Assembly (NCBI GenBank): GCA_963717505.1 | Contig: OY970342.1 | Location: 352,001-416,000, forward strand | DNA length: 64,000 nucleotides | Source of the DNA: Candidatus Eiseniibacteriota bacterium | GTDB lineage: Bacteria; Eisenbacteria; RBG-16-71-46 | Direction of reading: 5' to 3' | Shown: piece by piece, positions 542 through 7,133 of the stretch | Layout of the letters: the number at the start of each line of letters is the position of its first letter | Position numbering within the stretch: the first letter of the stretch is position 1 | Position numbers and translations under genes: made by a program | Notes under the pieces: model-generated | The model's database searches: none | The model's input: only the letters and a program-made list of their open reading frames with translations | What the model was told of the DNA's origin: nothing

Positions 542-545
542 AATG

Positions 546-583
546 CCCCTCGTTCGGGCCCGTCAGCGGCCCGAACGAGGAGG
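546..583 (+). promoter_or_regulatory. Hairpin sequestering the Shine-Dalgarno of the NHL-repeat gene
   Basis: Perfect 13-bp inverted repeat cctcgttcgggcc (548-560) / ggcccgaacgagg (568-580); the 3' arm overlaps GAGGAGG (577-583) just upstream of ATG 588. Confidence 0.55.
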
Positions 584-587
584 TCGC

Positions 588-3365
588 ATGCACCGCATCT
601 CGAGATTCCTTTCTGCCCTCGGATTCCTGGTCGTCCTCACCCACGTGGCGACCGCCGCCACCGCGCCGACCACTCCGACGTTCGTCCTGTCGTGGGGCAA
701 CGTTGGTTCCGCGCTCACGCAGTTCATCTATCCGTTCGATGTGGCAACCGACGCACTCGGCAACCTCTACGTCGCGGACCAGCTCAACCACCGCATACAG
801 AAGTTCGATCGCCTCGGGAACTACCTGGGTCACTGGGGCTCGTTCGGTACCGGTGACGGCGAGTTCGACAACCCGTTCGGCGTGGCCATCGATGCTGCCG
901 GCAACGTGTACGTCTCGGACAATGGCAACCACCGAATGCAGAAGTTCAGCAGCACGGGCGCCTACCTCGCCCAGTGGGGTTCGTTCGGGACCGGCAACGG
1001 ACAATTGCGCTACCCCATGGCCCAGGTCATCGACGCCGCTGGCAATGTCTATGTCGTGGACCAATACAATCAACGCATCCAGAAGTTCACGGCTGCGGGG
1101 GTCTACGTCACGCAGTGGGGCACGCTGGGCAGTGGGAACGGCCAGTTCTGGAATCCGGTCGGCATCGCCCTCGACCCGGCGGGCAACGTCTACGTCGCCG
1201 ATCAGAACAACCACCGCATCCAGAAGTTCAGCCCCGCCGGCGCCTATCTCTCGCAATGGGGCTCGTTCGGCAGCGGCAACGGACAGCTCTACTTCCCGAC
1301 CGGCGTGGACATCGACGCGACCGGCAACGTCTACGTCGCCGATCGATACAACCACCGGATCCAGAAGTTCAGCGGTGCGGGCGACTACCTCACTCAGTGG
1401 GGTTCGAACGGAAGCGGCCCTGGGCAGTTCGTCGAACCCACCGGCGTGGCCGTCGACGCCGCCGCCAACGTGTACGTCGCGGACTACTACAATCATCGCA
1501 TCCAGAAGTTCAACGGCGCCGGCGCGGCCCTCTCCGAGCCGGCGGGCGCGTACCTGCTCAAGTGGGGCACGTTCGGCAGCGGCGCCGGGCAGTTCAACTA
1601 TCCCTGGGACGTGGTCCTCGACGCTGCCGACAACATCTACGTCGCCGACTACAGCAACAACCGGATCCAGAAGTTCAGCCGCACGGGCGCCTACCTCTCC
1701 CAGTGGGGCTCGCCCGGCAACGGCAACGGACAGTTCAACGCTCCCGCGCGCCTGGCCATCGACGCGGCGGGGAACATCTATGTAGCCGATCAGTACAACA
1801 ACCGCATCCAGAAGTTCAGTAGCGCCGGCACCTACATCACCCAGTGGGGCTCCTTGGGCGCCGGTGACGGACAGTTCAGCTACCCCATTGGGCTGGCCGT
1901 GGACGCCGCTGGCAACGTGTACGTTGCCGATACGTACAACAGCCGCATCCAGAAGTTCAGCGACTCCGGCACCTACCTCACCCAGTGGGGCTCGCTCGGC
2001 AGCGGCAACGGGCAGTTCAATTATCCGATCGCCATCGCGACCGACGCCGCCGGCAACGTCTACGTGGCGGACTACTTCAACCGTCGCATGCAGAAGTTCA
2101 GCAGCACAGGCGCCTACATCACACAGTGGGGCACGCCCGGCAGCGGCAACGGCGAGTTCGGCTTCCCCCGAGGTGTGACCGTCGATGCGGCCGGGAACGT
2201 CTACGTGAACGACGTCGGCAACTCCCGCATCCAGAAGTTCACCGGCGCGGGGACCTACCTCACCCAATGGGGCTCGCTCGGCAGTGGTGATGGCCAATTC
2301 AACTTTTTCACCGGCGTGAGCACCGATGCGTCGGGCAACGTCTACGTTTGCGATACCGAAAACCAACGCATCCAGAAGTTCGTGATGCCTCCAGCCATCG
2401 CCCTGGTCTCGGACGTCGGGAACGATCAGGGCCGCCAGGTTCAAGTTCGATTCTTGCGTTCCTCGGCGGACGCGCCCGGCACCGGAGTTCTGGTGACCGG
2501 ATACGAGGTCTACCGGCGTAACGATCCGCTCCCGGGAGTCGCGGCGGACGGGAAATCAGCCGAGAGTGTCGGCGCCTCGCGGCCGAACGATCCGCCGGAT
2601 GGGCTCCTGCTCGCCGGCTGGACCTATCTCATGACCGCGCCGGCCCACGGTGAGAGCGAGTACAACGTCGTGGTGCCGACGCTGGTCGACGCCACCGCCG
2701 GATCGCTCGAATACTCCGCGTTCATGGTCCGGGCTGCGTCCGGCGACCCGTTCACTTTCTATGACTCGGGCGTCGACAACGGCTTCTCGGTGGACAATCT
2801 GTCGCCGCCCGCTCCAACGCCGTTCACGGCGGCCTACGCCGCAGGCGCCACCAACCTGCATTGGGGTGTGAGCACGGCTTCCGACTTCGCCACGTTCCGG
2901 CTCTACCGCGGCGAAAGTGCCGACTTCGTTCCGGGAGCCGGCAACCTCGTTGCTGCCTCTCCCGACACGGGCTACATGGATGAGGGGCCTGCTGGGCGCT
3001 ATTACAAGCTGTCCGCCGTGGATTGGAATGGAAACGAAAGCCCGCACGTGCTGGTTGGCCCGAACACGACATTGGACGCGCCGGCCGCTCCCGCGGTGGC
3101 GTTCGCCCTCGAGGGGGCGCACCCGAACCCCGCGGTCGGCGGCCGAATGATGGTGGCGTTCGCGTTGCCATCGGACGCGCCGGCCACGATCGAGCTGATC
3201 GACCTCGCGGGCCGGCGGGTGCTGGCGCGCTCCGTGGGTTCCCTGGGTGCAGGGCGCCACACCTTGGACCTCGCAGCGGGACATAGGTTGGCGCCCGGTG
3301 TGTATCTCGTGAGGCTCACCCAGCGCCAAAACACGCGGGTCGTTCGGGTGGCGGCGATCAACTAG
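588..3365 (+). CDS. Secreted NHL-repeat protein (12 repeats, two 6-bladed beta-propellers) with C-terminal T9SS-A/FlgD-like sorting domain
   Basis: Signal peptide MHRISRFLSALGFLVVLTHVATA after SD GAGGAGG; 12 copies of a 47-aa repeat (P.GVAVD..GNVYVAD..NHRIQKF...G.YLTQWG) with a linker after repeat 6; C-terminus PNP...DLAGRRV...LAPGVYLVRL. Confidence 0.9.
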   Translation: MHRISRFLSALGFLVVLTHVATAATAPTTPTFVLSWGNVGSALTQFIYPFDVATDALGNLYVADQLNHRIQKFDRLGNYLGHWGSFGTGDGEFDNPFGVAIDAAGNVYVSDNGNHRMQKFSSTGAYLAQWGSFGTGNGQLRYPMAQVIDAAGNVYVVDQYNQRIQKFTAAGVYVTQWGTLGSGNGQFWNPVGIALDPAGNVYVADQNNHRIQKFSPAGAYLSQWGSFGSGNGQLYFPTGVDIDATGNVYVADRYNHRIQKFSGAGDYLTQWGSNGSGPGQFVEPTGVAVDAAANVYVADYYNHRIQKFNGAGAALSEPAGAYLLKWGTFGSGAGQFNYPWDVVLDAADNIYVADYSNNRIQKFSRTGAYLSQWGSPGNGNGQFNAPARLAIDAAGNIYVADQYNNRIQKFSSAGTYITQWGSLGAGDGQFSYPIGLAVDAAGNVYVADTYNSRIQKFSDSGTYLTQWGSLGSGNGQFNYPIAIATDAAGNVYVADYFNRRMQKFSSTGAYITQWGTPGSGNGEFGFPRGVTVDAAGNVYVNDVGNSRIQKFTGAGTYLTQWGSLGSGDGQFNFFTGVSTDASGNVYVCDTENQRIQKFVMPPAIALVSDVGNDQGRQVQVRFLRSSADAPGTGVLVTGYEVYRRNDPLPGVAADGKSAESVGASRPNDPPDGLLLAGWTYLMTAPAHGESEYNVVVPTLVDATAGSLEYSAFMVRAASGDPFTFYDSGVDNGFSVDNLSPPAPTPFTAAYAAGATNLHWGVSTASDFATFRLYRGESADFVPGAGNLVAASPDTGYMDEGPAGRYYKLSAVDWNGNESPHVLVGPNTTLDAPAAPAVAFALEGAHPNPAVGGRMMVAFALPSDAPATIELIDLAGRRVLARSVGSLGAGRHTLDLAAGHRLAPGVYLVRLTQRQNTRVVRVAAIN

Positions 3366-5139: not shown

Positions 5140-5168
<29 letters not shown>

Positions 5169-5703
5169 CCGCGCGTCGCATGCGCACGAAGCGCAGGGTC
5201 ACGCCGTCCGGAAGCGTGTCGAGAACTTCCTCCTCGGCGGCGAACCCGAGCGCGGCGTAGAACGGGACCCCAGGCAGCGTCGCCATCAGCTCGAGGGTCG
5301 AGAAGCCGGCCGCGCGGGCGGCGTCCTCGCAGGCCGCCAGCAGCTTGCGACCGATGCCTCGGCGCACGGCCTCGGGAGCGACGAAGAAGGCACGAATCCG
5401 CGCGGCGTCCTTCTGGGGATCCAGTTGCTCGGCAGTGCCGGTAGGTCGCTGGTCCCCGCCATACAGGTTCCGGCGGAAGCTCCACCCGCCGCAGGCGACC
5501 GGAACGTCGTTCATCTCCACGACGAAGTAGGTTCCGTCGGCGATCAAGGTCGAGTCGACGCCAAACACGTGCCGCAGCGCCGATTCGATCTCGGTGTCCG
5601 AGTAGAACCCCCGGCTCAGGCCGCGTGCCGAGCGCTCGATCAAGTCGCGCAGGACCGGAATGTCCGCGGCTAGAGCCAACCGGATCACGATCTCGTCTTT
5701 CAA
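5140..5703 (-). CDS. GNAT family N-acetyltransferase
   Basis: ACGGWS..RNLYGGD, ARIRAFFV.P...RRGIG, LMATLPGVPFY...GF motifs; TTG start chosen from SD GAGGA (ORF track extends to 5730). Confidence 0.88.
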
Positions 5704-5757
5704 AATGCGTCCTCGAGGGCTGAGAGCCACGCCTGGCTTCCGTTGCCTCCCCGAATC

Positions 5758-6441
5758 CTATGCGAAGCTGTCCGACTGGGGATCCCAGAAGTCGCCGACG
5801 AGCCCAATGCCCGCGAAGATCCGGCGGATCTCGTCGGGCTGGGGACGGCGGGAGTTCTCGTCGAGCCTGGTCGAGTACCAGGTGGTCGCGAGCTGCCAGA
5901 GCTGGCCCATGCCGACGATCGGGCGCACCGGATGTCCGTTCGCTGCGCACCACTGACGCACCCGCTCTTCCGACCGGAAGAAGAGCATGTTCCTTCAGGT
6001 GAAGACCAAGTCGTTCCACCACTGGGCGGCGGGAACCAGGCAGTGGAACAGCCAATCCGAAGGACCTGGGCCGTCGACGCCGACTTCCATCTCCAGAGGC
6101 TCGAGCGACTGCTCGCATCGCGAGCGGACGGTGCCCGCTCGACGCAGCGCCGCTGGAATGCCGAGGGCGTCCCAGGCGCAATTCGCGAAGTAGTCGACCC
6201 CGCCCGACGTGATTTTGTGCTGCGTGGGCACGCCGGAGAACGGTGGCGCCATCCGGATCGAGACGCCATCCGGCTCGAGCAGCAGCACGCGCAGCGCACG
6301 CAGCCTTCCGTAGGCTTCGACCACGGCGTCGCGAGTCGAGCCGACGCGCTCGGCGACCACCTCGGGCGTCGGCCTACGGCCGGTTTCGGCAAAGTACCGG
6401 TAGACCGCCATCTTCACCCGGACGTCGAAGTCGGCGGTCAT
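5758..6441 (-). CDS. MerB-like (organomercurial lyase family) protein with in-frame TGA at 5995-5997, probable selenocysteine (U149)
   Basis: ORFs 5995..6552 and 5758..5988 are in the same frame, separated by TGA-AGG-AAC. Joined protein has an N-terminal wHTH, PFSGVPT.H, ANCAWDALG (C88/D91), SRC, and FT-U-RNMLFFRSEE aligning with MerB SFCCHVHFF; SECIS-like hairpin follows the TGA. Confidence 0.85.
5964..5997 (-). promoter_or_regulatory. Putative bacterial SECIS element
   Basis: mRNA UGA-AGGAACAUGCUC-UUCUUCC-GGUC-GGAAGAG-C: stem with GGUC apical loop starting 19 nt after UGA, resembling the E. coli fdhF SECIS loop. Confidence 0.7.
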
Positions 6442-7133
6442 GGCACGAGCTGACGAGCCAGAGTCGCGAGGTCGGGAACCTCGAGGTCCGGCGCGGCGTC
6501 GGAGAGCGGTGTCGCTCCTTCGCCCGGTTTTCCTTGACGCCGGTTGACCCACACGGTCGACAGACCCAGACGCTTGGCGGGAGCGATGTCGTGATAGCGA
6601 CTCTGCGCGACATGAAGGATTCGGCTTCGCGGCACCGTGATGCGCTCGAAGGCACGCAGGAAATTCTTCTCGGAAGGCTTGTACGACCGCGCCTGCTGCG
6701 CAGTGACGATCCAGTCGAACTTCACACCCAGTTTGCTTGCCGAATGCTGGAACAGGTCGTCGTCGATGTTCGAGATGACCGCGAGCTTGTACCGCTTCGC
6801 GAGCGCGCGCAGCGCTTCAGCGGAGTCCGGAAACGCCGGCCAGTCGGCGACCGATTGCGCGAAGGTCTCGCGCTCGGCGCGGGTCGGCTTGAACCCGAAC
6901 TTGGCGCCCAGCCCTTCCAACACTCGGGTCAGGACCACGCGATACTCGACATAGGGCCCGGCTTCGACTTGGCTCTCGAGCCGGCCAAAGAGAACGAGCG
7001 CGGCTTCCGGCTCGACGGTGGCGCCGCAGGCGGCGGCGATCGGCAGCAGGGCGTTCAGAATCCCCTGCTCCCAGTCGATCAAGGTTCCGTAGCAGTCGAA
7101 GGTCAAGACTTCGTAGGCTGCGGGGTCGATCAT
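6438..7133 (-). CDS. Haloacid dehalogenase type II (HAD superfamily)
   Basis: LTFDCYGTLIDWE, WPAFPD, ISNIDD, SYKP, LHVAQS.YHDIAPA..LGL..VWVNR; stop overlaps the next ATG (ATGA). Confidence 0.92.
   Translation of the reverse strand: MIDPAAYEVLTFDCYGTLIDWEQGILNALLPIAAACGATVEPEAALVLFGRLESQVEAGPYVEYRVVLTRVLEGLGAKFGFKPTRAERETFAQSVADWPAFPDSAEALRALAKRYKLAVISNIDDDLFQHSASKLGVKFDWIVTAQQARSYKPSEKNFLRAFERITVPRSRILHVAQSRYHDIAPAKRLGLSTVWVNRRQGKPGEGATPLSDAAPDLEVPDLATLARQLVP

Follow-up and report, generated by a model that had tools for sequence, protein, structure and literature searches.

The window analysed here, a stretch of 64,000 nucleotides from contig OY970342.1 of a Candidatus Eiseniibacteriota bacterium, carries on its minus strand a real and intact gene (5758..6441) that almost certainly specifies a selenoprotein, selenocysteine (Sec) insertion being predicted from comparative data. 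The explanation that best accounts for the findings as a whole, and in which we place considerable confidence, is that of a complete gene for a 227-residue protein of the MerB fold, in which UGA 149 would be recoded to Sec and whose product may carry out the protonolysis of organometallic compounds. An earlier note on this DNA had proposed a Sec-containing organometal lyase. That proposal is supported by the analysis reported below, with selenium insertion and lyase activity both standing as predictions.

The interrupted frame and its MerB-like product

The gene comprises 227 codons and a TAG stop. A single frame runs on the minus strand from the ATG at 6439-6441 to the TAG at 5758-5760, and its sole in-frame TGA, at 5995-5997, forms codon 149, which we read as selenocysteine on the strength of its alignment with MerB Cys159 and its conservation as TGA in orthologues. 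The earlier note had described two ORFs in one frame, separated by this TGA and joining to 227 residues; this was confirmed on the sequence, and every one of the peptide strings it quoted (ANCAWDALG, SRC and WWNDLVFT-U-RNMLFFRSEE) was found in the translation. Read with translation table 11, the same DNA breaks into a piece of 148 residues that begins with the ATG at 6441 and an ORF of 76 residues (5758-5988); the N-terminal piece appears in the ORF list as an ORF of 185 residues, counted from a GTG further upstream. TGA is also an ordinary stop in this DNA, ending 11 of the 22 long non-overlapping ORFs of the window.

The read-through protein matches the Pfam MerB family (PF03243) with 94.6 bits (cut-off 27) over residues 68-189, a region that spans the TGA; taken separately, the two halves score 52.7 and 21.6 bits. 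When a profile of the protein and its close relatives was compared with solved structures, MerB2 (5c17, E 1.5e-13) and MerB (1s6l, E 5.4e-07) were recovered, and the alignment equates Cys88 (codon at 6178..6180, minus strand) with MerB Cys96, Asp91 (6169..6171, minus) with the proton donor Asp99, Cys109 (6115..6117, minus; SRC in place of SHC) with Cys117, and codon 149 with Cys159 as well as with the matching Cys of MerB2. Cys88 is invariant in 11/11 rows of a close Sec-type alignment (A1), as are Asp91 and Cys109. Of the MerB catalytic set, the equivalents of Cys96 and Asp99 are present, and the third position is occupied by a UGA, presumably Sec, and not by Cys. The profile alignment bears out the placement, suggested beforehand, of C88 and D91 on the first two catalytic residues of MerB and of the TGA on the Cys159 position. 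The active site is accordingly predicted to be Cys88 / Asp91 / Sec149, equivalent to Cys96 / Asp99 / Cys159 of MerB, with Sec149 as its putative member.

Structural prediction gave a consistent picture. An AlphaFold model of all 227 residues, computed from a 57-row alignment, has a mean pLDDT of 96.8 and a pTM of 0.92, with no segment of low confidence, the UGA site included. The 11 best PDB matches of this model by Foldseek were all MerB or MerB2 (E 9e-11 to 1e-7), with TM-scores, normalised to the query, of 0.50-0.64. The N-terminal 50 residues resemble a winged helix (Sigma70_r3, 24 bits, slightly below the cut-off), and the protein also shows weak fold matches to regulators of the DtxR and Rrf2 types. 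Since the superposition on MerB and MerB2 takes in the whole protein, N-terminal part included (194-220 alignment columns), this helical N-terminus belongs to the MerB architecture itself and does not represent an added regulator domain.

The TGA is conserved wherever the full-length gene was recovered. A search of 61 related genomes returned a match in 8, the organism's own genome included (the 61-genome counts, for this gene and for selA, include G038, in which selA was matched and the MerB-like gene was not). All seven other full-length matches, from six related genomes, contain exactly one TGA, with homology extending to residue 224-226, and one more match is a fragment at a contig end. 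When one genome for each species was scanned with two signature peptides, a relative was found in at least 456 stretches from as many species genomes, and the best 80 of these 456 loci, all from other species, carry TGA at the same codon (80/80). Homology was expected to continue past the stop, and it does so, up to residue 226, in the 7/7 full-length matches from related genomes and in the 80/80 loci from other species. All 87 full-length orthologues examined, from independent assemblies, have TGA at the codon 149 position, and the T-U dipeptide found in the window protein recurs in every one of them. A set of 84 distinct orthologous genes has TGA as the internal codon in 84/84, and the terminal stops of these same genes are mixed (TGA 35, TAG 28 and TAA 20, one gene running off its contig). 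Past the TGA, residues are conserved with free synonymous variation, which argues that the downstream frame is translated and under selection at the protein level (17 codons past the TGA contribute to the entropy set described below).

More distant relatives bear on the chemical identity of the residue at this site. A search of cluster representatives returned 1713 clusters at E 0.001 or better. Among 33 distant full-length homologues of 27-37% identity, the residue at the Sec column, counted by eye, is Cys in 28, the other five having Trp (two), His, Ala and Arg (one each). The expectation of Cys or TGA at position 149 is borne out in this form: TGA in the orthologues, and Cys in 28/33 of the distant full-length proteins. 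The position of Asp91 often varies in these Cys-type homologues. Three further full-length database proteins were considered as natural Cys forms and rejected, P0003 and P0004 for their frameshift-like divergence around the site, and P0006 for a Trp at the site.

The consequences of the internal TGA for annotation are extensive. Among the 120 best database clusters, 116 end at the Sec codon (114 by pattern match and two by eye); for at least 59 of the best 150 clusters, out of 1713, pattern matching puts the end precisely at the site, and all 20 cluster ends inspected in full read ...FT, ...YT or ...HT. The name 'organomercurial lyase' is borne by two NCBI records, each 146 residues long. The prediction that standard annotation would render the gene as a truncated protein followed by a 76-residue hypothetical agrees both with the table 11 split and with these database ends. 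The family is, by this evidence, a large one that appears in databases under the guise of truncated proteins, and thousands of entries would represent halves of genes. Correction needs a family model built on a Sec-aware reference, as has been done for SaoL.

The hairpin and the selenocysteine machinery

Shortly past the TGA lies a SECIS-like hairpin (5965..5982, minus strand) with a 7-bp stem, UUCUUCC (5976-5982) pairing with GGAAGAG (5965-5971), and an apical loop GGUC (5972-5975). Counted from the U of UGA the loop occupies +23 to +26, leaving 19 nt between UGA and loop; the stem with its GGUC apical loop at 19 nt past the UGA, to which attention had been drawn at the outset, is present as described. 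Folding of the single sequence attaches no statistical significance to this GC-rich hairpin region: for a 71-nt segment z = 0.91, and 168 of 200 shuffled sequences fold at least equally well.

Comparison among relatives tells a different story. The segment UUCUUCCGGUCGGA is almost invariant in 88 sequences (82 of them distinct), and RNAalifold applied to these 88 predicts the 7-bp stem with its GGUC loop. Pairing is maintained in 98.8% of 574 alignment cells, a share that drops to 45.6-72.5% if the pairing partners are displaced by 1 to 3 columns. The stem shows one compensatory replacement of CG by AU (in L068), 21 cells in which a change on one side leaves a wobble pair, and 7 in which pairing is lost. 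Covariation is thin, with a single compensatory cell in 574, because the hairpin element hardly varies. As an observation apart, the copy at L068:1202-1258, labelled Calditrichota, in which the closing pair is AU in place of CG, also has the loop GUUC in place of GGUC and Ser in place of Arg, and no double change other than its altered pair occurs in the stem.

Codon usage provides what we consider the strongest argument for the predicted hairpin. Arg156 is encoded by CGG in 84/84 genes (third-base entropy 0.00 bits) and Ser157 by TCG in 84/85 (0.09 bits), whereas the third-base entropy of the other 60 of the 62 conserved four- or six-fold degenerate residues lies between 1.09 and 1.92 bits. 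The codons of Arg156 and Ser157 are those that make up the hairpin loop and its closing pairs, and the Leu codon directly 5' of the stem varies freely (third base C in 54, T in 21, G in 4 and A in 3). These frozen synonymous sites, together with the alignment, show the predicted hairpin to exceed chance by comparative data, though not by the single fold. An Rfam search of the hairpin strand matched no family; three hits on the plus strand were at chance level (E of 1 or more). If its role is as predicted, a near-invariant hairpin shared by many phyla would offer a clean natural SECIS for studies of recognition by SelB.

The genome search for Sec machinery, put forward as a check on the proposal, recovered all four components sought in the organism's own genome: selA (566 bits), selB (345 bits), selD (347 bits) and tRNA-Sec (67 bits), each over its curated cut-off. 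The selD gene (G000:C1:3020964-3022149, outside the window) has an in-frame TGA of its own, so that SelD itself is likely to be a selenoprotein here; past this TGA comes a hairpin (GGUCC/GGACC) whose GGC loop occupies +21 to +23, and the tRNA-Sec gene lies about 170 nt downstream of selD. Another match to the tRNA-Sec model, at G000:C1:2160440-2160529 (also outside the window), scores 49 bits against a gathering score of 47 and may represent, instead of a second tRNA-Sec, a long-arm tRNA such as that for Ser or Leu. Co-occurrence across the 61 related genomes was not informative, selA being over the cut-off in 57 and the MerB-like gene present in 8. From the conserved TGA, the hairpin and the machinery taken together, we hold with very high confidence that this is a genuine selenoprotein gene, into whose product selenium would be inserted at residue 149.

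Neighbourhood, alternative readings and possible chemistry

Immediately upstream is a gene for a hydrolase of the HAD family (6438..7130, minus strand; Pfam HAD_2, 48.4 bits), whose TGA stop overlaps the ATG of the MerB-like gene as ATGA (6438-6441), and downstream a gene for a GNAT acetyltransferase (5140..5730, minus; Acetyltransf_1, 49 bits) starts 27 nt past the TAG. The three are packed in operon-like fashion, yet neither neighbour is conserved elsewhere. When neighbours from the window were compared by tblastn with 88 related loci, hits numbered none for the HAD gene, none for the GNAT gene, three for ABC-F and two for M20, and all-versus-all clustering of 2268 flanking ORFs (those overlapping the gene set aside) produced a largest neighbour cluster covering 7 of 88 loci. 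A Pfam scan directed at 84 upstream ORFs, downstream ORFs being clustered only, detected no mer genes among a mixture of GNAT, APH, hydrolase, MacB/FtsX, B12-binding and rhodanese families. Two upstream genes (L099:3264-4013 and L109:2358-3731) encode B12-binding or homocysteine S-methyltransferase domains, parts akin to methionine synthase; at 2/84 these are too few for a link with methyl transfer. In L077, L087 and L091, some ORFs located 0.2-2.5 kb downstream fell into the single-linkage cluster of the MerB-like gene itself and could be paralogues or an artefact of chaining. Elsewhere in the window, a 940-residue ORF at 543-3365 on the plus strand has many NHL-type repeats (with a recurring 'NHRIQKF'), preceded by a signal-like N-terminal segment and followed by a C-terminal domain.

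That no mer genes lie nearby, as the earlier note had it, holds, and the observation can be extended to the whole genome, a single contig of 4.16 Mb that is 86.68% complete by marker genes. In it the best match to MerA reaches 231.6 bits against a cut-off of 454, MerT has no match, and mercury-type MerR reaches 46 against 150.85; MerA was likewise over its cut-off in none of five related carrier genomes (best 361 against 454). A classic route of mercury detoxification would consequently be left with no partner for its Hg(II) product, and the doubt voiced about mercury as the substrate is reasonable in light of these searches for MerA, MerT and mercury-type MerR.

The titles of the metagenome-assembled genome (MAG) records that carry relatives name Chloroflexota, Gemmatimonadota, Myxococcota, Acidobacteriota, Verrucomicrobiota, Pseudomonadota, Eisenbacteria, Planctomycetota, Calditrichota, Ignavibacteria, Omnitrophota, Cryosericota, Clostridia and Streptosporangiaceae, a list taken from record titles that binning errors could inflate. 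A quick tree places the window protein in a clade of 23 rows that is Sec-containing throughout, with SH-aLRT support of 95 and phyla intermixed, and in this tree the window copy groups more closely with those labelled Gemmatimonadota, Chloroflexota and Acidobacteriota than with those of its family-level relatives. We read this as a stand-alone gene that has probably moved horizontally between phyla, a reading drawn from the patchy presence of the gene (8/61) and the intermixture of phyla in the tree. Switches between Sec and Cys number seven on the quick tree as it stands, and well-supported branches force only one of them.

Could translation simply stop at the TGA, a separate 76-residue protein starting 6 nt on, so that the MerB domain is split between two products with no Sec in either? 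Gene callers split the frame in this way, 114 of the 120 best database clusters (and two more by eye) end exactly at the site, and separate C-terminal pieces of 72-101 residues exist among 6 of the best 150 representatives. A possible start codon follows the TGA in 88/88 sequences (ATG at 6 nt in 87, GTG in the remaining one), and in the window an AGGA stands just 5' of that ATG. This AGGA is not conserved, however, its place being taken by AGCAAC, AACAAC or GCCAAC in most orthologues, and a mere stop codon would hardly be TGA in 84/84 genes whose terminal stops are drawn from all three triplets. The split would also cut off the residue aligned with catalytic Cys159, homologues that have Cys there run on uninterrupted, the hairpin made by the frozen synonymous sites lies at the spacing of a SECIS, and the model folds as a single domain across the break; we regard the arrangement in two genes as very improbable. 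Even less probable, to the point of being negligible, is a pseudogene or an assembly error, in which the TGA would be a nonsense mutation or a miscalled base in a former Cys codon. Indel errors are hinted at in this genome, where matches to flavoprotein disulfide reductases at C1:2618750-2620016 and C1:475850-477197 (both outside the window) are split over adjacent frames and where marker completeness is merely 86.68% for a single contig, but such errors are frame shifts and not substitutions. Moreover, the same TGA codon recurs in 87/87 other full-length orthologous loci from independent assemblies, and the downstream frame combines conserved residues with synonymous variation.

A different kind of objection accepts the selenoprotein and disputes the enzyme: the product might be a binder of soft metals or metalloids, a chaperone, a sensor or a thiol-selenol redox protein, with no lyase activity. 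To this we assign a small but appreciable probability. In its favour are the shortfall of MerA, MerT and mercury-type MerR relative to their cut-offs and the want of conserved partner genes, the winged-helix-like N-terminal 50 residues and the weak similarity in fold to regulators of the DtxR and Rrf2 types, and the frequent variation of the Asp position in distant Cys-type homologues; a single residue change, moreover, makes MerB copper-binding, according to a preprint (10.1101/2022.07.06.499078). Against it, the invariance of Asp91, Cys88 and Cys109 in all 11 rows of A1 preserves the full MerB catalytic set, and superposition of the entire protein on MerB and MerB2 runs counter to an N-terminus added as a regulator domain. 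For the specific claim that the window protein is an organometal lyase, analogy with MerB leaves the chances about evenly balanced.

Under the preferred reading of a recoded MerB-fold gene, UGA 149 would be translated as Sec by the organism's own SelA/SelB/SelD/tRNA-Sec system, with SelB recruited by the GGUC-loop hairpin 19 nt past the UGA. In MerB itself the metal is held by two thiolates and the carbon receives its proton from Asp99 (10.1101/2022.07.06.499078). The most likely chemistry for the window protein would be a MerB-type protonolysis of a carbon-metal bond, in which the metal of an organometallic compound would be bound by the Cys88 thiolate and the Sec149 selenolate, and the leaving carbon would receive its proton from Asp91; in a cell with no MerA, it would fall to small thiols to take up the metal. 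Compared with a thiolate, a selenolate is softer as a ligand and more nucleophilic, from which easier capture of the substrate and harder release of the metal would be expected. Because release from a selenolate would be harder, and the metal would be left to small thiols, we find it doubtful that the natural substrate is an organomercurial.

In broader terms, the lack of a mer operon would mean either that organometals are cleaved without any coupling to the reduction of mercury or that the substrate is not mercury. Replacement of sulfur by selenium at a metal-binding site should alter both metal affinity and reactivity, which would make this family a natural test case for the choice of Sec over Cys. 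Were the lyase assignment true, the family could represent an unrecognised route for the degradation of methylmercury or of other organometals (tin, lead or arsenic compounds), and surveys based on merB as a marker would miss it, since gene callers cut the protein at its catalytic selenocysteine. The more ambitious generalisation, that an organometal lyase dependent on selenium and independent of MerA is common among the bacteria of soils and sediments, which would exchange it horizontally, and is represented in at least 456 species genomes, can be offered only as a tentative one, more apt to prove wrong than right.

Relation to known systems

The hairpin resembles the SECIS of Escherichia coli fdhF in being located shortly past the UGA and in bearing a GGUC apical loop. 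The G and U of the fdhF loop lie at +23/+24, a position that compares well with the loop at +23 to +26 found here. The two differ in stem sequence and in the bulged U, none being evident in the present hairpin, whose SECIS role is predicted.

With MerB and MerB2 of known structure (PDB 1s6l, 3f0o, 3f0p and 5c17) the window protein has in common its fold and the equivalents of Cys96, Asp99 and Cys117, with the putative Sec at the Cys159 position, at a sequence identity of about 20%. It falls far short of the NCBIfam equivalogs for MerB, with 46.5 bits against 193 for NF009710 and 38.4 against 200 for NF033555, and for that reason is not considered MerB proper. Further differences are the predicted Sec in place of Cys159, which is not adjoined by a second Cys, some 30 extra C-terminal residues, and a setting in which profile searches found neither a mer operon around the gene nor MerA in the genome. 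Closer in overall design are the full-length Cys-type homologues (220-235 residues, 27-37% identity, in unnamed clusters), which agree with the window protein in length, architecture and a C-terminal GL.G.FW extension and differ in having Cys in place of Sec (28/33) and in the variable position of Asp91.

The nearest precedent is SaoL, a selenoprotein described as a MerB-like organometallic lyase (NCBIfam NF040728; Haft & Gwadz, bioRxiv 10.1101/2022.07.06.499078), which also figures in a table row of PMC9312934 and in table rows of a 2026 review (PMC13188914). According to the preprint, SaoL belongs to a conserved nine-gene SAO locus of strictly anaerobic bacteria. MerB is unmentioned in the main text of PMC2398784, PMC5029168, PMC13326102 and PMC12013277, and SaoL was the only MerB-like selenoprotein found in a literature search of main texts, though the family of the window gene could figure in supplementary tables. 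The two proteins are alike in their MerB fold (PF03243), in Sec at the position of MerB Cys159, in retention of the Cys96 and Asp99 equivalents, in their typical truncation at UGA in databases and in the doubt attached to mercury as the true substrate. They differ in several respects: on NF040728, whose cut-off is 140 bits, the window protein reaches 30.4, with only residues 29-120 aligning; its motif is T-U in place of the C-U of SaoL; and its gene is flanked by those for a HAD hydrolase and a GNAT acetyltransferase, with no conserved neighbourhood comparable to the nine-gene SAO locus described in the preprint. The statement in the earlier note that Sec-containing MerB-like families have been reported elsewhere stands in so far as SaoL is published, and does not extend to the window gene, which satisfies neither the SaoL model nor its motif. 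By profile score, motif and gene context, the family of the window gene is to be regarded as separate from SaoL and as a probable second family of MerB-like selenoproteins, for which SaoL supplies the precedent in concept. If this is true, the two would be independent families, SaoL that of strict anaerobes, and the one described here, to judge from the titles of the MAG records, that of lineages typical of soil and groundwater.
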